From: Alphaproteobacteria bacterium
GTDB lineage: Bacteria > Pseudomonadota > Alphaproteobacteria > Rs-D84
Direction of reading: 5' to 3'
NCBI GenBank assembly: GCA_033345155.1
Contig: JAWPOG010000045.1
Span: 5,795 to 69,794, forward strand
Length of the DNA: 64,000 bases
Of the stretch, positions 1,995 to 29,780 are shown piece after piece (position 1 is the stretch's first letter; each line of letters opens with the position of its first letter). The notes beneath the pieces are model-generated. The model was not told the DNA's origin. It searched no databases and saw only the letters and a program-made list of their open reading frames with translations. The position numbers were made by a program, and so were the translations under genes.

Positions 1995-3041
1995 ATGTCA
2001 GATATGCGTGTTGTTTTATTGTCTTGTTGCGCGCCATGTTCGTCGGGTGCAATAAAACAATTGGCAGAACATAAAATAGACGGCGTGTCTGACTTTATTG
2101 TTTTGTTTTACAATCCAAATATTTTTCCAGAATCTGAATATACAAAACGTATGAACGAGCAAATAAAGTACTGTGAACAGTTGGGTGTAAAATATGCTGT
2201 TCTGGAATATGACCATGACGCATGGCGTGATGCCGTTCGTGGGTTTGAGAACGCACCCGAACGCGGGGCGCGTTGCAGTCTGTGTTTTGAATACAGATTT
2301 CGTCGCGCGGAAAAATTTGCACGTGAAAACGGTTATAACGCGATTGCATCTGTATTGGGTGTGTCGCGTCATAAAAGTCAAACTCAGGTTGATAACGCCG
2401 CACAAAATGTTTTAAGACAAGATGTAAACGCAAAAAATTATCACGCAAAAAGATATACAAATAGGGCGTTGGCACAATCAAAATATCTTAAAAAAAATAT
2501 GACAGAGGCCGAGCGCTTATTATGGCATTATTTACGTGCAAGAAAGGATTTTTCTTTTAGAAAGCAAGCGCCGATTGGAAATTATGTTGTTGATTTTTTG
2601 TGTGTTAAAAAGAAACTAGTGATAGAATTGGATGCTGCACAACACGGCGATAAAGATAATTTTTTGCATGATATAGAACGGGACGCGTATTTAGAAAAGA
2701 ATGGTTATCGTGTTTTAAGATTTTGGAATGACGAGGTTTGTCGAGATATAAAAAAAGTGTTGAATACAATTGATGTGTTTGTGAACGACAATTGTTCAAG
2801 CCACCCCCTGTCGTCACAGTGTGTGCCGACATCCCCCGCCAAGGGCGGTGGAAATTTTATTGGCGGCCTTTCAGAATGCCCACCGCCCTTGGCGGGGGGT
2901 GGCCACGACAGTGGTCGGGGGGTGGCTGTTGAATATATGCCAATTAAATGGGATGAAAATTTACGCATTCAGATAAATCGTGCGTCAGACTTTTATCGTC
3001 AGAATTATTGTGGCTGTGAATTCAGTATCAGAAAGATATAA
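1995..3041 (+). CDS. queH: Epoxyqueuosine reductase QueH (DUF208) interrupted in-frame by a DUF559 endonuclease-like domain and a palindromic element
   Basis: ATG at 1995 (MSDMRVVLLSCCAPCS = QueH CCxPC motif). C-terminus ...FYRQNYCGCEFS is the QueH C-terminal Cys motif. The central segment KYLKKNMTEAERLLWHYLR...PIGNYVVDFLC...LVIELDAAQH...GYRVLRFWNDEV is a complete DUF559/Vsr-like domain. The ORF tool started 45 nt upstream at 1950. Confidence 0.8.
   Translation: MSDMRVVLLSCCAPCSSGAIKQLAEHKIDGVSDFIVLFYNPNIFPESEYTKRMNEQIKYCEQLGVKYAVLEYDHDAWRDAVRGFENAPERGARCSLCFEYRFRRAEKFARENGYNAIASVLGVSRHKSQTQVDNAAQNVLRQDVNAKNYHAKRYTNRALAQSKYLKKNMTEAERLLWHYLRARKDFSFRKQAPIGNYVVDFLCVKKKLVIELDAAQHGDKDNFLHDIERDAYLEKNGYRVLRFWNDEVCRDIKKVLNTIDVFVNDNCSSHPLSSQCVPTSPAKGGGNFIGGLSECPPPLAGGGHDSGRGVAVEYMPIKWDENLRIQINRASDFYRQNYCGCEFSIRKI
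2801..2925. repeat. About 125-bp imperfect palindromic element (RPE/MITE-like) lying in-frame inside queH
   Basis: Left arm ccaccccctgtcgtcacagtgtgtgccgacatcccccgccaagggcggtgg; right arm ccaccgcccttggcggggggtggccacgacagtggtcggggggtgg. The reverse complement of the right arm ends in the identical cccccgccaagggcggtgg. GC-rich relative to the rest of the gene. Confidence 0.7.
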
Positions 3042-3070
3042 AAAAATCCGGCATTTGCCGGTATTTTTTA
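3041..3070. terminator. Bidirectional intrinsic terminator (A-tract, ccggcatttgccgg hairpin, T-tract)
   Basis: aaaaaaatccggcatttgccggtatttttta lies between convergent queH and the 3068..3502 gene. Confidence 0.7.
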
Positions 3071-3502
3071 TTTTGTTTTTTGATATACATCTGAGAATAA
3101 AACAGTCCCGACTGTCTCGCAAACCATTTTATCAAGACATTTTCCAGATTTTATATTTTCTGCACACAGTTCTTCTTTGCCACGCTGTGACATACCGGCT
3201 GTTTTTTTCTGGCATTTCATACATTTGCCAATTTCCAAATTTAATACCAGTTCATTTGTATAACTTTTTTCATTGAATTTTACCCATTGTGCCGCTTTTG
3301 AAGAATAAGATGCACTAAGAACCTTTGGACATGATTTTTGTGGTGTTGGATATTGTGCCACTAATTGAACCAGTTCTTGTGCTGTTTGTTGTGTGATATT
3401 TTCGCACAGTGATATTTTGCCCATCAGAAAAGAAAAATCGGCGTCCATAACAACCGTTACATTTTTTTGACGGTTTATATCTAATTCGTCATTATCAATC
3501 AT
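3068..3502 (-). CDS. Hypothetical Cys-containing protein (144 aa)
   Basis: Intact ORF with several CxxC-like pairs (CMKCQKK, CLDKMVC). No family recognised. Confidence 0.45.
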   Translation of the reverse strand: MIDNDELDINRQKNVTVVMDADFSFLMGKISLCENITQQTAQELVQLVAQYPTPQKSCPKVLSASYSSKAAQWVKFNEKSYTNELVLNLEIGKCMKCQKKTAGMSQRGKEELCAENIKSGKCLDKMVCETVGTVLFSDVYQKTK

Positions 3503-3579
3503 ACCTGACCCTTTTATTATTGTTGTAATAATAGTATATAGGCAAATAAAGTAAAGTCAAGGCCACCCCACTTCCCGCC

Positions 3580-3614
3580 AACCACTAACCACTAACCACT
3601 AACCACTAACCACT
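3580..3614. repeat. (AACCACT)x5 heptanucleotide tandem repeat
   Basis: aaccact repeated 5 times with a partial sixth unit upstream, directly 5' of a promoter-like ttgcga-17-tataat before fabD. Confidence 0.9.
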
Positions 3615-3622
3615 TTATTATT

Positions 3623-3651
3623 TGCGATTGGTTTTTTTAGGGTTTATAATA
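3623..3651 (+). promoter_or_regulatory. Putative sigma70-type promoter for fabD-fabG
   Basis: ttgcga, 17 nt, tataat, about 28 nt upstream of the fabD ATG. Confidence 0.4.
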
Positions 3652-3678
3652 TAACCAGCAAAATAAAAAAGGTTATAT

Positions 3679-4554
3679 ATGTCATCAATTTTTGTATTCC
3701 CAGGTCAAGGCGCACAAAGCGTCGGTATGGGTAAAGATTTATATGAAAATAACGCTGCCGCACGTGCCGTTTTTGATGAGGTTGATTCTGCACTGGGCGA
3801 AAAGTTATCGGATATCATTTTTAATGGCCCATCCGAAGAATTAACCCTGACCGCAAATGTTCAGCCGGCAATTATGGCGACATCGATTGCGATGTTGCGT
3901 GCCAGTGGTGTATCACTGCCAGAATTTGTCGCGGGTCATTCCCTGGGTGAATATACCGCGCTGTGTGCGGCTGGTGCGTTGTCGGTGGGTGACGCGGCAA
4001 GATTGTTGCGTGTGCGTGGTAATGCGATGCAATCTGCGGCGCCAGCGGGCACAGGTCTGACGGCTGTTGTTATGGGGCTGGATATTGATGTGGTGCGTGA
4101 AATCTGTGCGGCCACAGATTGTGATGTTGCCAACGACAATTGCCCAGGCCAGGTTGTTATTTCTGGGTTAAAAGAAACTGTCGAAAAAACAATGGATTTG
4201 GCAAAGTCTCGTGGGGCCAAACGTGCAATGCCATTGGCGCTGTCTGTTCCGGTTCATTGTCGGGTGCAATCGCCCGCAGCGGATGCGATGCGCGCCGCCC
4301 TGGATTCGGTTGAATTTAACACACCAATTGTACCAATCGTTTTAAATAAAACTTGTGCCCCAACAACCGATATTGATGAAATCAAAGACGCGCTGGTCTA
4401 TCAGATGACGCATGGTGTGCGTTGGCGCGAAAGTGTTTTAAATATGGCAAATTTAGGTGTAACAGAACAAATCGAAGTGGGCCCAGGTTCCGTTTTAACA
4501 GGCCTGTGTTCCCGTATCACAGATAAAATAACCGCTAAGAAATTGGAGATATAA
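3679..4554 (+). CDS. fabD: Malonyl-CoA:ACP transacylase
   Basis: FVFPGQGAQSVGMG and GHSLGEY active-site motifs. 291 aa. Confidence 0.95.
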   Translation: MSSIFVFPGQGAQSVGMGKDLYENNAAARAVFDEVDSALGEKLSDIIFNGPSEELTLTANVQPAIMATSIAMLRASGVSLPEFVAGHSLGEYTALCAAGALSVGDAARLLRVRGNAMQSAAPAGTGLTAVVMGLDIDVVREICAATDCDVANDNCPGQVVISGLKETVEKTMDLAKSRGAKRAMPLALSVPVHCRVQSPAADAMRAALDSVEFNTPIVPIVLNKTCAPTTDIDEIKDALVYQMTHGVRWRESVLNMANLGVTEQIEVGPGSVLTGLCSRITDKITAKKLEI

Positions 4555-4555
4555 G

Positions 4556-5284
4556 ATGTTTGATTTAACAGGCAAAGTTGCTTTGATTACAGGTGCAACT
4601 GGTGGTATCGGTGGTGCGATTGCGCACAAGATGAAACAGGCCGGTGCGACTGTTGTTGTGTCTGGCCGTAATGTCGCAAAAATGGACGCTGAATTTGGTG
4701 ATGAATACATTAAAATTCCATGCGACTTGGCGGCGGACGGCGGTGCGGTTGAATTGGTTATGAACACAATTGAACGGGCGGGCAAAATCGATATTCTGAT
4801 TAACAACGCGGGCATTACACGCGACACCTTGTTAATGCGCATGACCGACGATCAGTTTGACGAAGTTATCAACACCAACCTGCGTTCTTGTTTCAAGATG
4901 TGCCGTGTGGCAATTATGCCCATGATGAAGAATCGCTTTGGTCGTATTATCAACATGGCATCAATCATTGGCGCAATCGGTGGCCCAGGCCAGGCAAACT
5001 ATGCCGCATCCAAGGGTGGCATGATTGCAATGACAAAATCGATTGCGGCCGAGGTTGCATCTCGTGGCATTACCGCCAACGCGATTGCACCGGGTTTTAT
5101 CAAAACACCAATGACAGATGTCTTGCCAGACGAATTAAAAAAATCGTATTTGGCGCAGATTCCAGCAGGCCGTTTTGGCGAACCAGATGATATTGCGAAC
5201 GCATGTGTGTTTCTGGCATCCGACGAAGCGTCGTACATCAACGGCCAAACCCTGCATGTTAACGGGGGAATGGGAAGATTCTAA
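4556..5284 (+). CDS. fabG: 3-oxoacyl-ACP reductase (SDR)
   Basis: TGATGGIGGAIA Rossmann motif and the YxxxK catalytic pattern (YAASK). 242 aa. Begins 2 nt after the fabD stop. Confidence 0.95.
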   Translation: MFDLTGKVALITGATGGIGGAIAHKMKQAGATVVVSGRNVAKMDAEFGDEYIKIPCDLAADGGAVELVMNTIERAGKIDILINNAGITRDTLLMRMTDDQFDEVINTNLRSCFKMCRVAIMPMMKNRFGRIINMASIIGAIGGPGQANYAASKGGMIAMTKSIAAEVASRGITANAIAPGFIKTPMTDVLPDELKKSYLAQIPAGRFGEPDDIANACVFLASDEASYINGQTLHVNGGMGRF

Positions 5285-5466
5285 AACGCAACGCGTTTTA
5301 GAATCAAAATTGCCCTGGCAATTTTAAAGCCACGGATGAGCGGAACGCGAACGCAGTGGCGTGTCATTCCGACGCAGGTCGGAATCCAGGTAAATAGGTT
5401 GCGACGCAGTCGCCCAAAATGATATGTACCATAAGATAAAACGCAACGCGTTTTAGAATCAAAACG
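5281..5466. repeat. Two 29-bp direct copies of a hairpin (ctaaaacgcaacgcgttttagaatcaaaa) flanking a ~125-bp multi-hairpin insert
   Basis: Copies at 5281-5310 and 5437-5466. The insert carries a degenerate gtcattccgacgcaggtcggaatcc repeat at 5363-5387 and several GC hairpins. Confidence 0.75.
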
Positions 5467-5474
5467 AATAAAAA

Positions 5475-7118
5475 ATGAAACATTATGATGTGATTGTTAT
5501 TGGTGGTGGGCATGCAGGGGTTGAAGCCGCATCTGCATCTGCACGTCGTGGTGCGAAAACCCTGTTGATAACAATGGCGGAATCGGATTTAGGCGCATTG
5601 TCTTGTAACCCCAGTATCGGCGGTCCCGGCAAATCCCAGATGGTTGCTGAAATGGATGCGCTGGGCGGTGTTATGCCGCGTGCCGCTGACCGCGCAGGGA
5701 TTCATTGGCGTACATTGAACGCAACACATGGTGCGGCGACGCGCGCCCTGCGTGCGCAAATCGACCGCGATTTATATCATAATGCGATTGTTGGTATTTT
5801 GTCGGAATATAAAAATCTGGATGTCATTTTTGAACCTGTTGAATCTGTGGATTTAGAAAACGCAATCGTTAACAACAAATATCATGCGCGCGCAGTTATC
5901 CTGACAACGGGAACATTTTTAAATGGCACGGTCACGCGTGGCGTGGAAAAAATCCCATCGGGGCGATTGATGGACGACGGCACATACCAAGACGCCGACA
6001 AAAACATATCAAATATTTTAAAGAACGCGGGCTTCAAGATTTTGCGCCTGAAAACAGGCACGCCTGCGCGCATCAAACGCGATTCGATTGATTTTTCTGT
6101 ATGTGAAATTCAGCCCGGCGACACCCCCCACGATTGGTTTTCCGACGGTGATGAAAACAATAATTATGACGCGGTCTGCTATATCACACATACAACCAAA
6201 ATCACGCACCAGATAATTCGTGATAACATAAAAAACGCACCAATGTATAATGGAGACATTACCGGCACTGGCCCGCGCTATTGCCCGAGTTTAGAAGACA
6301 AGGTTATGCGATTTCCAGAACACACATCGCACCATGTCTTCTTGGAACCCGAAGGTTATAACAGTGATTTAATATATCCAAATGGTATATCAACCAGTTT
6401 TGGCAGCGATATCCAAGACATCTGGATTCGCTCAATCCCGGGCTTGGAAAATTGCGAAATTGTGCGCTATGGATACGCGATTGAATACGATGCGATTGAC
6501 GCGCGCGCCCTGAACGATAAATTGCAGGCCAAGGACCGCCCGCACCTGTTTTTTGCAGGTCAAATCAATGGCACATCCGGGTACGAAGAAGCAGCGGCCC
6601 AGGGTCTGGTTGCGGGCGCAAATGCCGCGGCGTATGCATTAAATACAGAACCACTGATTCTGGACCGAACAAATTCAATGATTGGTGTTTTGATTGACGA
6701 CATAACAACATTGGGTGTGGACGAACCGTATCGCATGTTCACATCGCGTGCAGAATATCGTCTGTCATTGCGTTGCGATAATGCGATTGCGCGATTGGGG
6801 AAAATCGGTGTGAAACTGGGGCTGACAACAAATGCGTGGTATGAAAAAATATTCAATTTGAAAAAAGAAATTATTGCCGAAAACGATAAATTCTATGCGG
6901 GCTATATCGCGCGCAATGAACGTGAAATCGCCGCGTATAAACGGGACGCGGCATTAAAGATACCGTCTGATTTTGTGTATTCGGGCCTGCCGGGGCTGAC
7001 AAATGAATTGGTTGAAAAATTAACGGCAACGCGCCCGGAAAACATTGCCGACCTGACGCGCATACCGGGCATGACCCCCGCCGGGATTATGGTGGTGCTG
7101 CGCAAAATCAAGGCATAA
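5475..7118 (+). CDS. mnmG: tRNA uridine-5-carboxymethylaminomethyl modification enzyme MnmG (GidA), short form
   Basis: N-terminal FAD motif YDVIVIGGGHAGVEAA, and PRYCPSLEDKV, FFAGQINGTSGYEEAAAQG. 547 aa, shorter than the typical ~620 aa. Confidence 0.9.
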   Translation: MKHYDVIVIGGGHAGVEAASASARRGAKTLLITMAESDLGALSCNPSIGGPGKSQMVAEMDALGGVMPRAADRAGIHWRTLNATHGAATRALRAQIDRDLYHNAIVGILSEYKNLDVIFEPVESVDLENAIVNNKYHARAVILTTGTFLNGTVTRGVEKIPSGRLMDDGTYQDADKNISNILKNAGFKILRLKTGTPARIKRDSIDFSVCEIQPGDTPHDWFSDGDENNNYDAVCYITHTTKITHQIIRDNIKNAPMYNGDITGTGPRYCPSLEDKVMRFPEHTSHHVFLEPEGYNSDLIYPNGISTSFGSDIQDIWIRSIPGLENCEIVRYGYAIEYDAIDARALNDKLQAKDRPHLFFAGQINGTSGYEEAAAQGLVAGANAAAYALNTEPLILDRTNSMIGVLIDDITTLGVDEPYRMFTSRAEYRLSLRCDNAIARLGKIGVKLGLTTNAWYEKIFNLKKEIIAENDKFYAGYIARNEREIAAYKRDAALKIPSDFVYSGLPGLTNELVEKLTATRPENIADLTRIPGMTPAGIMVVLRKIKA

Positions 7119-28331: not shown

Positions 28332-29666
28332 ATGATAAAAATAACAATAGCAGGTCGTCCAAATACGGGCAAATCGACACTTTTCAATGCGCTGACGGGA
28401 ACGCGTGATGCGCTGGTTCATGACCGTCCTGGGGTCACGCGCGATACAATTTCGGGTGATTTTCGTGACCGCCCTTACAAGCTGTATGACACGGCTGGCT
28501 TGGAACGCGCCAATTCTGGTATTGCGCTGGATTCCACCAATATGGCGATTGATGCGGTATCGAACGCAGACGCTGTTTTGTTTGTGGTTGATGGTCGTGC
28601 TGGATTGACCAACGAAGACCTTGATTGGGCCAAACTGGTTCGCCGCAAAACACGCGCGCCAGTATTGTTGCTGGTAAACAAAAGCGAATCGGCAAAGCGC
28701 CTGGCTAATATCCATGATTTCTATAAATTGGGTTTTGGCGAACCTGTTTTGGTATCGGCCGAACACAAACGCGGTTTTGGCGAGATTTACGAATTTCTGG
28801 ATAAAATTGCAGGCGACGCCGCAAATGCGACTGTTCCTGAACGGTCGTCCGACAACCGCATTAAAATCGCAATCCTGGGCCAGCCAAATGTCGGCAAATC
28901 GACATTTGTAAATCGTGTTCTGGGCGAAAAGCGTCAAATCGTAATGGATGCGCCTGGTATTACCCGTGACACGGTAAAAATCCCGACCAAATTCTATGGA
29001 CGTGATATTGTTTTGATGGATACGGCGGGACTTCGTCGCAAGGCGGGGGTAACGGATGATGTTGAAACATTATCGGCATTAAAGTCGCTAGATGCGATTG
29101 ACAAAGCTGATGTTGTAATTTTAATGGTTGATGCCACCAGAAATATTGAAAATCAGGCCTTAGGAATCGCATCGCGCGTCTATAATGCGGGCAAGATTTT
29201 ATGCGTTGCTCTGAACAAATGGGATTTAGTGGAACCTGAAATTCGTGATGAAAAATTACTGAAATTAAAGCATCAATTTTCCAAATCTTTTCACCAGATT
29301 ATCAAGCCCATGATTTTGGCGGTATCTGCTGAAACGGGTACTGGTGTCCAGAATATGTTTCGTCGCATTTATGAACAGTGGGATATCTCAAATGCCCAGG
29401 CGCCAACCAGTTTGATAAATCGGATTGTTGAAAAATTGGTCGCAGACCGTCAGCCGCCTTTGTCGCGACTAAAGCGCCCAATGAAGATTAAGTTTGCCCG
29501 TCAAACAGGCCGTCATCCAATGCGTATCACAATAAATGTTGGTGGTGCGTCTGATATCCCAGAATCATATACTCGTTATTTGCGTCGTGGGTTGGCAACT
29601 GCACTGAAATGGGAACATTTGCCAATTGTGATTGAATACGAAAAATCTGAAAATCCATACGATTAA
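28332..29666 (+). CDS. der: Ribosome-associated GTPase Der (EngA), tandem G-domains
   Basis: Two GTPase domains (GRPNTGKSTLFN and GQPNVGKSTFVN) plus a KH-like C-terminus. Confidence 0.95.
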   Translation: MIKITIAGRPNTGKSTLFNALTGTRDALVHDRPGVTRDTISGDFRDRPYKLYDTAGLERANSGIALDSTNMAIDAVSNADAVLFVVDGRAGLTNEDLDWAKLVRRKTRAPVLLLVNKSESAKRLANIHDFYKLGFGEPVLVSAEHKRGFGEIYEFLDKIAGDAANATVPERSSDNRIKIAILGQPNVGKSTFVNRVLGEKRQIVMDAPGITRDTVKIPTKFYGRDIVLMDTAGLRRKAGVTDDVETLSALKSLDAIDKADVVILMVDATRNIENQALGIASRVYNAGKILCVALNKWDLVEPEIRDEKLLKLKHQFSKSFHQIIKPMILAVSAETGTGVQNMFRRIYEQWDISNAQAPTSLINRIVEKLVADRQPPLSRLKRPMKIKFARQTGRHPMRITINVGGASDIPESYTRYLRRGLATALKWEHLPIVIEYEKSENPYD

Positions 29667-29780
29667 TCCCCTTCGTCTGGCGAAGGGGTGGCGCGAATGC
29701 GCCGGGGTAGTGGTAAAATAAGGACGAATTATGAAATTACCTGTAAATAATCCCCTTCGCCAGCGAAGGGGATTTAGTTG
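29667..29780. repeat. Pair of palindromes atccccttcgYcWgcgaagggg about 85 bp apart
   Basis: tccccttcgtctggcgaagggg (29667-29688) and atccccttcgccagcgaaggggat (29751-29774). First copy abuts the der stop. Confidence 0.8.

Follow-up and report, generated by a model that had tools for sequence, protein, structure and literature searches.

A DUF559 endonuclease cassette ending in an inverted repeat doublet within queH of an Alphaproteobacteria bacterium, and a possible relation of such nucleases to BoxC/PIT/TMECO repeats

The queH gene on contig JAWPOG010000045.1 of Alphaproteobacteria bacterium assembly GCA_033345155.1 raises the question of how a long palindrome comes to lie in frame within a gene for epoxyqueuosine reductase. 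The stretch analysed, here called the window, is 64,000 nt in length (positions 5,795 to 69,794 of the forward strand). An earlier note on the window had described a palindrome of about 125 bp and classed it as an element resembling MITEs (miniature transposable elements with inverted repeats) and Rickettsia palindromic elements (RPEs). The palindrome was located at 2799-2927 and is 129 bp in length, with paired arms and a core 16-mer present once per strand. It is not autonomous. It forms one end of a 507-bp cassette encoding a DUF559 endonuclease domain, and in homologues units of the same kind stand on both sides of DUF559. The earlier note had seen a real, non-random structure and was right on its general nature (selfish, palindromic, in frame and tolerated), but it missed the endonuclease cassette. 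The features of the locus are as follows.

1995 to 3041, plus strand: queH coding sequence (epoxyqueuosine reductase) carrying the insertion; Pfam QueH and DUF559; protein P0001.
2412 to 2918, plus strand: in-frame insertion of the DUF559 cassette and palindrome, 507 nt (169 codons); boundaries within a few codons either way.
2469 to 2780 (residues 156-259), plus strand: DUF559 (PF04480) Vsr-like PD-(D/E)XK endonuclease domain; Pfam 1e-33, PDB 3hrl 2e-21, Foldseek TM 0.84.
2799 to 2856, plus strand: left repeat unit (a-h-b); tract a GCCACCCCC at 2800-2808, hairpin h at 2809-2831, hairpin b CCCCCGCC-AAG-GGCGGTGG at 2833-2851, then AAATT.
2857 to 2874, no strand: AT-rich 18-nt spacer, the loop of the long hairpin, from the fold and arm analysis.
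2875 to 2927, minus strand: right repeat unit, inverted (b'-h'-a'); CCACCGCC-CTT-GGCGGGGG at 2880-2898, weak hairpin h' at 2900-2917, GGGGGTGGC at 2918-2926.
2919 to 3041, plus strand: C-terminal QueH segment (VEYMPIKWDEN...YRQNYCGCEFS) resuming past the insertion, from the 7lc5 and homologue alignments.

The host gene is an intact queH. Its product scored 150 bits against the QueH profile (PF02677, cut-off 23.5), and the Pfam match (9e-44) was split into two stretches with DUF559 between them. The invariant C/CGC columns of the homologue alignment were present. P0001 (348 aa), from an NCBI Alphaproteobacteria metagenome-assembled genome (MAG), was 100% identical to the window protein. The open reading frame (ORF) extends from 1950/2004 to 3041 and is continuous through the palindrome. 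Thermotoga maritima QueH (PDB 7lc5) aligned to residues 27-136 and then to residues 322-342. The distance from QVD to PIKW is 182 residues in the window compared to 13 in the empty allele L129, so the insertion comprises 169 codons at about nt 2412-2918. The alignment of QueH homologues agreed with this extent. The insertion length of 507 nt is a multiple of three and the QueH frame is preserved. Insertion-free alleles in relatives, which the earlier note had proposed as a comparison, do exist (e.g. L129). The cassette occupies a permissive linker of QueH.

An AlphaFold model (AF2, 40 sequences) was confident for the QueH and DUF559 domains and again from residue 309. Residues 269-308, encoded by nt 2799-2918, had a very low predicted local distance difference test (pLDDT) value of about 37, and these 40 palindrome-encoded residues are predicted to form a disordered tether or linker. 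The relative placement of the QueH and DUF559 domains was not confident (predicted template modelling score (pTM) 0.59). Foldseek matched the model to QueH 7lc5 (TMt 0.66) and to 3hrl (TMt 0.84). An intein or intron was considered as the nature of the insertion and was ruled out by the lack of a Hint domain in Pfam and by the continuous frame. Rfam analysis of window positions 2300-3700 gave only sub-threshold miRNA-like hairpin noise, with no known RNA family, intron or riboswitch.

The palindrome is imperfect and is translated in the queH frame; the peptide quoted for it earlier was correct. It supplies the final 120 nt of the insertion, beginning 19 nt past the end of the DUF559 domain. Its GC content was 65% (2800-2899) compared to 31-36% in the queH flanks, a difference that had been pointed out before. 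Over their 27 nt, the inner arms (2830-2856 and 2875-2901) are 89% complementary. The outer arms AGCCACCCCC and GGGGGTGGCT (2799-2808 and 2918-2927) are complementary at 10/10 positions. The 16-mer CCGCCAAGGGCGGTGG has one copy per strand, at 2836 and 2880, compared to 0.29 expected, with no others in the 64 kb. GCCACCCCC occurs three times in the window (0.28 expected), every time within the palindrome. The cores are shared by both arms as claimed but they are not terminal, as they adjoin the AT-rich centre. The element is also free of stop codons as claimed, but this is uninformative, given that the GC-rich stretch has no stop in any of the three forward frames or in one of the reverse frames. 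The proposed RNA folding check gave -97.3 kcal/mol for 2790-2935 compared to -57.9 ± 4.4 for 200 dinucleotide shuffles (z = -9), and 0/200 shuffles were as good. In the 129-bp palindrome two copies of a structured repeat unit stand head to head as a doublet, with the b ends facing each other. The left unit belongs to the cassette as its 3' unit and has tract a on the gene side. The right unit occurs alone at the queH site of relative L128.

To our knowledge DUF559 is among the commonest unexplained small nuclease families, and we know of no assigned function for its Escherichia coli member YcjD. The window domain was assigned to the YcjD family by NCBIfam. The conserved D, E-x-D and H residues, invariant in the family, were intact. 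Besides QueH, the only Pfam families in the insert were the DUF559 and REase_MTES_1575 nuclease families. The Pfam scan found the nuclease domain only, with no added DNA-binding module and no transposase in the cassette, and no second DUF559 gene was found in the window by tblastn. VSR, DUF559 and DUF2726 form one nuclease superfamily group (PMC3424549). The QueH and DUF559 parts of five loci were compared separately. The proportions of nonsynonymous (pN) and synonymous (pS) differences are given because synonymous sites were saturated and the ratio of the substitution rates (dN/dS) was mostly not computable. pS was 0.6-1.0 in both parts (0.66-0.97 in DUF559). For pN the values were about 0.1-0.19 (QueH) and about 0.2 (DUF559). 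Both parts are under purifying selection, and the low pN against saturated pS indicates that the DUF559 domain is maintained as a protein.

DUF559 and units are present at the same site in at least 17 more QueH homologues, of 50-71% identity. The nearest relatives with a name are MAGs of gut Alphaproteobacteria (Candidatus Enterousia and relatives) and not Rickettsia. Two peptide motifs flank DUF559, L (SHPLS..PTSPAKGGGN) and R (CPPPLAGGGH..SGRGVA), and both are translations of the arms. The cassette layouts in the alignment are LR-DUF-LR, LR-DUF-L and L-DUF-R, and the window has DUF-LR. In other QueH proteins the site is empty or contains a single L or R motif. Loss of units from doublet-DUF559-doublet could give rise to every layout observed. 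In the eight loci with DNA all insertions are in frame and the synteny metG-queH-fabD-fabG-mnmG is conserved. Along 4 kb, two contigs of Candidatus Enterousia-like bacteria share 99.2% identity and differ by one exact 501-bp indel. The indel consists of R, DUF559 and L, with a 64-bp direct repeat of the L unit at its borders. When neighbour-joining trees were built for QueH and DUF559 separately, the two had their main clades in common (Spearman 0.56 for the pairwise distances). Empty and solo-unit alleles were nested inside insertion-bearing clades of the QueH tree. The simplest history is an old insertion, mostly vertical inheritance and repeated loss through recombination between repeats. 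Repeated gain of the cassette is possible. The gene call of homologue P0121 suggested a disrupted queH; its translation is a single intact 392-aa ORF.

With all arms aligned the unit is about 55-70 nt long. In order, its parts are tract a GCCACCCCC, linker h (17-37 nt), hairpin b and a trailing (A/C)ATT. The consensus of hairpin b is CCCCCGCC-NNN-GGCGGKGG. Left-type units with differing, compensated h were found in L003, L006, L007, L127, L027, L049, L089 and L091. The sequence of h varies in almost every genome with the hairpin fold kept (e.g. TGTCGGT-GTT-ACCGACA, TGTCGGC-AAT-GCCGACA and TGTCGTCAC-AA-GTGACGACA). Half of the L-type linkers (8/16) beat all 200 shuffles in folding, and the h segment of the window (2809-2831) folds as a hairpin. 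In any one genome the b loops of the two arms co-vary, being AAG/CTT for the window and AAT/ATT for L006. The recurrent order at the gene is b'-h-a' / DUF559 / a-h-b, the a tracts adjoining the gene.

A genome collection was scanned with a 19-mer core. At least 119 loci were found among the matches listed, and the copy numbers are lower bounds. About half of these loci belonged to an unrelated repeat (AGTCAGACA-CCCCCGCCAAAGGCGGTGG-CTTGATGAG...) that lay for the most part at the ends of contigs from Patescibacteria and other MAGs, and about a third were chance matches in high-GC genomes (Streptomyces and others). True relatives of the unit numbered at least 12 or so among the matches listed and were in gut Alphaproteobacteria MAGs and one Muribaculaceae contig. 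Among the same matches, unit copies were on at least three contigs in MAG RGIG4037 (L027, L073, L089) and on at least three in Mgla_MAG_35 (L077, L125, L130), and outside queH the copies in related MAGs were intergenic. For the core search proposed in the earlier note, there were no copies beyond the palindrome in the 64 kb, and related copies were dispersed in related genomes. Its view of an element of the kind that inserts into ORFs in Rickettsiales-type genomes was not supported in this respect, the dispersed copies found being intergenic and the nearest named relatives being the gut MAGs.

Loci L027 and L089 contain b'-h-a', a conserved 20-nt spacer and a-h-b, which is the cassette without its ORF. 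L089 (MAG RGIG4037) also encodes a free-standing DUF559 gene of another subfamily (2028-2355, minus strand) adjoining a tRNA gene. This gene has a bracketing unit of its own, consisting of CCCTCCCC, a hairpin and CCCCTCC-GAC-GGAGGGG. The queH-borne DUF559 is the sole gene of its family found so far in RGIG4037 and Mgla_MAG_35. Two JGI QueH homologues (P0116, P0028) have a DUF559 of this second kind in frame at a different QueH site, after CCAPCSAGAIRQL. This insert is flanked by the peptides GGVPRSGG and AGTPPTEGN, and flank peptides of the L089 type (EFPSVGGV, TPPTEGN) border the P0116 DUF559.

C-terminal tails such as HPPLNPLPSREG and SLTLPHKGGGN are present on free-standing DUF559 proteins of many phyla. 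As such tails suggested the same arrangement, 80 metagenomic DUF559 loci were examined. The two flanks were inverted repeats of each other with z > 5 in 51/69 loci. A hairpin with C arm, loop and G arm was present at the 3' end of the ORF in 68/76 loci and its inverse upstream in 69/76, compared to 0.03 expected per interval of distal sequence from the same contigs. The pyrimidine tract 5' of the hairpin was a mirror of the hairpin 5' arm in 41 cases and a direct copy in 5, with 22 tied. A typical flank is CACCCTCCCC-TAA-CCCCTCCC-ATCAA-GGGAGGGG. Mirror-symmetric homopyrimidine blocks beside a purine partner are the signature of an intrastrand triplex motif. A generic three-block triplex motif was found upstream of 47/70 and downstream of 53/70 DUF559 genes (0.006 expected). 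About 90% of the 76 free-standing DUF559 genes are thus bracketed by inverted C/G hairpins with a mirror tract, in the layout of BoxC, PIT and TMECO repeats. Rfam analysis of 12 canonical DUF559 loci and six 'class A' loci gave sub-threshold miRNA-like noise and one tRNA.

A separate check of the association was made in E. coli. In K-12 the ycjD gene ends in a partial unit and a TMECO (BoxC) unit lies about 170 nt downstream. The K-12 unit near ycjD was present at a median of 18 places per genome in 5426 genomes, of which 3377 contain ycjD. CFT073 has eefRABCD at the ycjD site instead. This agrees with a published account that places ycjD in phylogroups A, B1 and C, together with ST69 and ST182, and eef in B2, D, E, F and G, and that has two or more replacements of eefRABCD by ycjD at fabI-sapF (PMC12817139). 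To compare ycjD with BoxC, 60 evenly spread genomes were sampled. Other BoxC-like places numbered 12-26 in ycjD-positive genomes (median 18, n = 37) and 1-14 in ycjD-negative genomes (median 3, n = 23). Published per-strain TMECO counts split likewise (PMC4666352 Table S7, combined with PMC12817139). The contrast in the 60 genomes gave p = 2e-10 in a Mann-Whitney test that ignores phylogeny. With the strains of the published table placed in the phylogroups to which we take them to belong, the counts were 13-30 in A/B1/C, 0-2 in B2 and 6-13 in D, E and F. By analogy, this pattern would be expected if the repeats depend on the nuclease as REP doublets forming hairpins (REPINs) depend on REP-associated tyrosine transposases (RAYTs), REP denoting repetitive extragenic palindromic sequences. 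As a separate observation, about 45 nt of the K-12 code for the YcjD C-terminus (ETVLENI..LN) is imperfectly duplicated about 90 nt after the stop codon (L211:7290-7370, minus strand). The duplicate sits between the partial unit and the BoxC unit and looks like the footprint of a past recombination.

BoxC/PIT/TMECO repeats were described in the 1990s, and we know of no enzyme or spreading mechanism tied to them. A total of 3610 occurrences of the TMECO pattern (CCCTCNCCC N3-6 GGGNGAGGG N3 GGGNGAGGG) were reported from 262 proteobacterial genomes; the motif adopts a triplex in vitro and is associated with local genome instability (PMC4666352, Holder et al. 2015). Its authors stated that mobility functions were never found near TMECO, and they cited earlier BoxC and Maher-group PIT studies. 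No paper linking DUF559 or ycjD to these repeats or to mobility was found in the literature searched. The repeats resemble the window unit in being short, GC-rich, dispersed and mostly intergenic, with a C-arm, loop and G-arm hairpin and a block mirroring one arm. They often occur as palindromic pairs with local rearrangement, and canonical versions bracket most free-standing DUF559 genes and adjoin ycjD. The window unit differs in having a self-folding hairpin of 17-37 nt in place of the second loop of 1-6 nt, in its impure stems and in being translated inside a gene. Tract a CCACCCCC matches the mirror of the b 5' arm CCGCCCCC at 7/8 positions and the direct arm at 6/8. The G arm GGCGGTGG has two pyrimidine interruptions. 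The published triplex criteria are three blocks of 6-15 nt with at most one mismatch and loops of 1-6 nt. Neither strict nor generic triplex motifs were found anywhere in the 64-kb window, where the second loop of the unit is a 23-nt hairpin. Because of the long hairpin second loop and impure stems, the unit is classed here as a variant of the BoxC/PIT/TMECO kind and not as a member of it.

REPINs are REP doublets that accompany a domesticated IS200/IS605-like Y1 (HUH) transposase, the RAYT. The window shares with them an inverted doublet of a structured unit forming a long hairpin, and the relatives also share the dispersal in intergenic DNA. DUF559 resembles a RAYT in its vertical inheritance, in the purifying selection acting on it and in its inverted flanking units, with few repeats where the gene is absent (E. 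coli ycjD). The flanked gene differs, being a PD-(D/E)XK Vsr-like nuclease and not an HUH/Y1 transposase, and the layout and sequence of the unit differ from REP. We know of no transposition chemistry for the Vsr-like PD-(D/E)XK fold. The RPE comparison made in the earlier note stands in part. As in RPEs, a palindrome of about 100-150 bp lies in frame in a housekeeping ORF and encodes a peptide that appears to be tolerated (PMC10969869) and in the AF2 model is a predicted disordered linker. Unlike RPEs, which have many copies with a large share in unrelated ORFs, the palindrome is a single copy in the 64-kb window, is tied physically and evolutionarily to an endonuclease gene, and the other copies found outside queH are intergenic. 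Its layout matches BoxC/PIT and its host is not Rickettsia. Vsr-fold homing endonucleases (EDxHD, I-Bth0305I) are similar in that a selfish-looking gene with presence/absence polymorphism interrupts a conserved host gene without destroying it, and in the Vsr-like nuclease fold with catalytic residues (3hrl 2e-21, TM 0.84). They differ in that the cassette has no intron or intein (Pfam, Rfam) and no added DNA-binding module, and the host protein is continuous by translation straight through. Of the features of a MITE, inverted units are present, with no transposase and no definable target-site duplication, because filled and empty alleles are too divergent or are bounded by the 64-bp unit repeat.

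The doublet of the unit and the adjoining DUF559 form one 507-bp in-frame QueH cassette that probably embodies a nuclease-repeat partnership like that of RAYTs and REPINs. In its mechanism, the nuclease would recognise the folded unit, either as a hairpin or as a hairpin with a third strand, in single-stranded or supercoiled DNA, and would nick or cut there. The ensuing repair or recombination would copy, delete and rearrange units. The nuclease in the window would lack its own start codon and ribosome-binding site and would be made as part of QueH. Translation of the palindrome would be a by-product tolerated by selection on QueH. A broader proposal is put forward more tentatively, as a serious possibility. 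DUF559 (YcjD-type, Vsr-fold) nucleases may be the cognate partners of BoxC/PIT/TMECO repeats across bacteria, with one unit family per subfamily, in a RAYT-REPIN-like arrangement with a PD-(D/E)XK nuclease. The window would then hold a long-resident in-frame queH insert with a hairpin-bearing variant of the unit. Several points weigh against the partnership. The unit family occurs at one place only in the window (queH), and the window unit departs from the published triplex motif in its 23-nt hairpin loop and in stems that are not all-purine or all-pyrimidine. Shared ancestry alone could yield the E. coli pattern, as A/B1/C against the rest is confounded, and ycjD-negative genomes retain 1-14 BoxC-like copies. 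The 501-bp indel could be a simple recombination between repeats without the nuclease. Congruent trees and the conserved position fit long residence rather than demonstrating present-day spread. The only functional study found concerned a DUF559 protein of Caulobacter, which it treated as a Vsr-like nuclease of mismatch repair (PMC12907096). The anatomy, its conservation in the clade, the indel polymorphism and the bracketing of DUF559 genes are observations; that the nuclease acts on the units, and in what way, is inferred.

An active homing endonuclease cassette without intron or intein is unlikely. DUF559 would then cut empty queH alleles or single units, repair of the double-strand break would copy the cassette, and the units would be recognition or landing sites or repair scars. 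Presence/absence polymorphism at one site in strains of 99.2% identity, the interleaving of empty, solo-unit and filled alleles on the QueH tree and the independent second-site QueH insertion of another DUF559 family (P0116, P0028) are all consistent with homing. So are the existence of Vsr-fold homing endonucleases such as I-Bth0305I (PMC3239194), a weak PADLOC 'HEase' match (3e-5) and the replacements of eefRABCD by ycjD. The DUF559 tree, however, broadly follows the QueH tree with synonymous sites saturated, which argues for mostly vertical inheritance, and the insert has no added DNA-binding module. Homing also leaves unexplained the ORF-less intergenic units and the same bracketing of free-standing DUF559 genes in unrelated contexts. 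It is quite improbable that the palindrome inserted alone as an RPE-like MITE and that its adjacency to DUF559 is a coincidence. Units were always at DUF559 borders at one site in the homologues (at least 17), and another DUF559 family has the order b'-h-a' / DUF559 / a-h-b too, as do about 90% of 76 unrelated loci. This reading would draw on the single-unit alleles without DUF559 (L007, L128), the dispersed ORF-less copies in related genomes and the in-frame, structurally tolerated palindromes of Rickettsia (PMC10969869), but the solo unit of L007 is explained by the 64-bp repeats bordering the 501-bp indel.

We also doubt strongly that the insertion is a host adaptation with incidental repeats, in which DUF559 was recruited as a nucleic-acid-binding domain of QueH, or the hairpin of -97 kcal/mol regulates translation or stability of the queH mRNA, or both. 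The long retention, the purifying selection on DUF559 and the intact QueH would fit such a role, as would the action of QueH on tRNA and the very stable RNA structure. Near-identical strains and close relatives lack the cassette, however, and its layouts are highly variable. The nuclease-plus-unit module is also found free-standing and at another QueH site, and the model has a linker predicted to be disordered and no confident domain placement (pTM 0.59). A chimeric join at the repeat, arising in assembly or binning, is barely credible. Palindromic repeats often break or mis-join metagenome assemblies, but the same architecture was present in independent NCBI, ENA, JGI and Logan assemblies with the synteny metG-queH-fabD-fabG-mnmG conserved.

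The window contains a second repeat of the same layout and unrelated sequence.

29664 to 29776, no strand: second repeat, GC-rich and composite, intergenic, just past a stop codon.

On the minus strand (29664-29712) it reads CCACTACCCC, hairpin GGCGCATTCGCGCC, CCCCTTCG-loop-CGAAGGGG and ATTAA, with a mirror match at 6/7 positions. A lone b-type hairpin (29750-29773) lies 40 nt beyond it. No DUF559 gene was found near 29664-29776 by tblastn of the window. The spacer upstream of fabD (3561-3612) contains GCCACCCC-ACTT-CCCGCCAA followed by five tandem CCACTAA heptamers. Its start resembles tract a and the b 5' arm in sequence, and it may be a decayed unit. At 5277-5460 there is an inverted repeat whose 24-nt arms (GATTCTAAAACGCAACGCGTTTTA) are separated by 136 nt and are each palindromic. 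In related loci, two resolvases, an EcoRI-type methylase and a GmrSD/HNH protein are encoded in a small island upstream of metG on a Candidatus Enterousia contig (L006:1100-5100), and L003 has a 132-aa GIY-YIG ORF (5679-6077). A further short repeat family (..TTTCTGGATTGCCAC..GC..CGCAATGACA..) occurs alongside units in gut MAGs and the Muribaculaceae contig, and reads as LDCFA.LAMT / WIATLRS in ORFs (L060:120-170 and 270-300; L077:7110-7140; L089:7300-7345; L026:2150-2360). The unrelated repeat met in the genome scan is itself highly conserved (AGTCAGACA-CCCCCGCCAAAGGCGGTGG-CTTGATGAGTGGGGTCGCCTCAAAGGCGAT...TTAATTAATT) and was found at at least 60 or so loci within L008-L126 (e.g. L014:109-127, L025, L034, L058). 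Its hosts are Patescibacteria, Bdellovibrionales, Pyrinomonadaceae and a Bathyarchaeia bin, mostly at contig ends. It had no Rfam match and may be a mobile-element end or an undescribed RNA.

The link between DUF559 and BoxC/PIT/TMECO repeats appears to be new here, as prior work reported no associated mobility gene. The bracketing statistics are very strong, with about 90% of DUF559 loci, where about 3% (hairpin) or 0.6% (three-block motif) would be expected. The contrast in BoxC copy number between E. coli genomes with and without ycjD points the same way, and the questions of how these repeats spread and what DUF559 does can be tested in E. coli. The queH case shows that a nuclease gene and its structured repeats can persist for a long time inside an enzyme of an essential pathway by being translated through, a route unlike that of introns and inteins.

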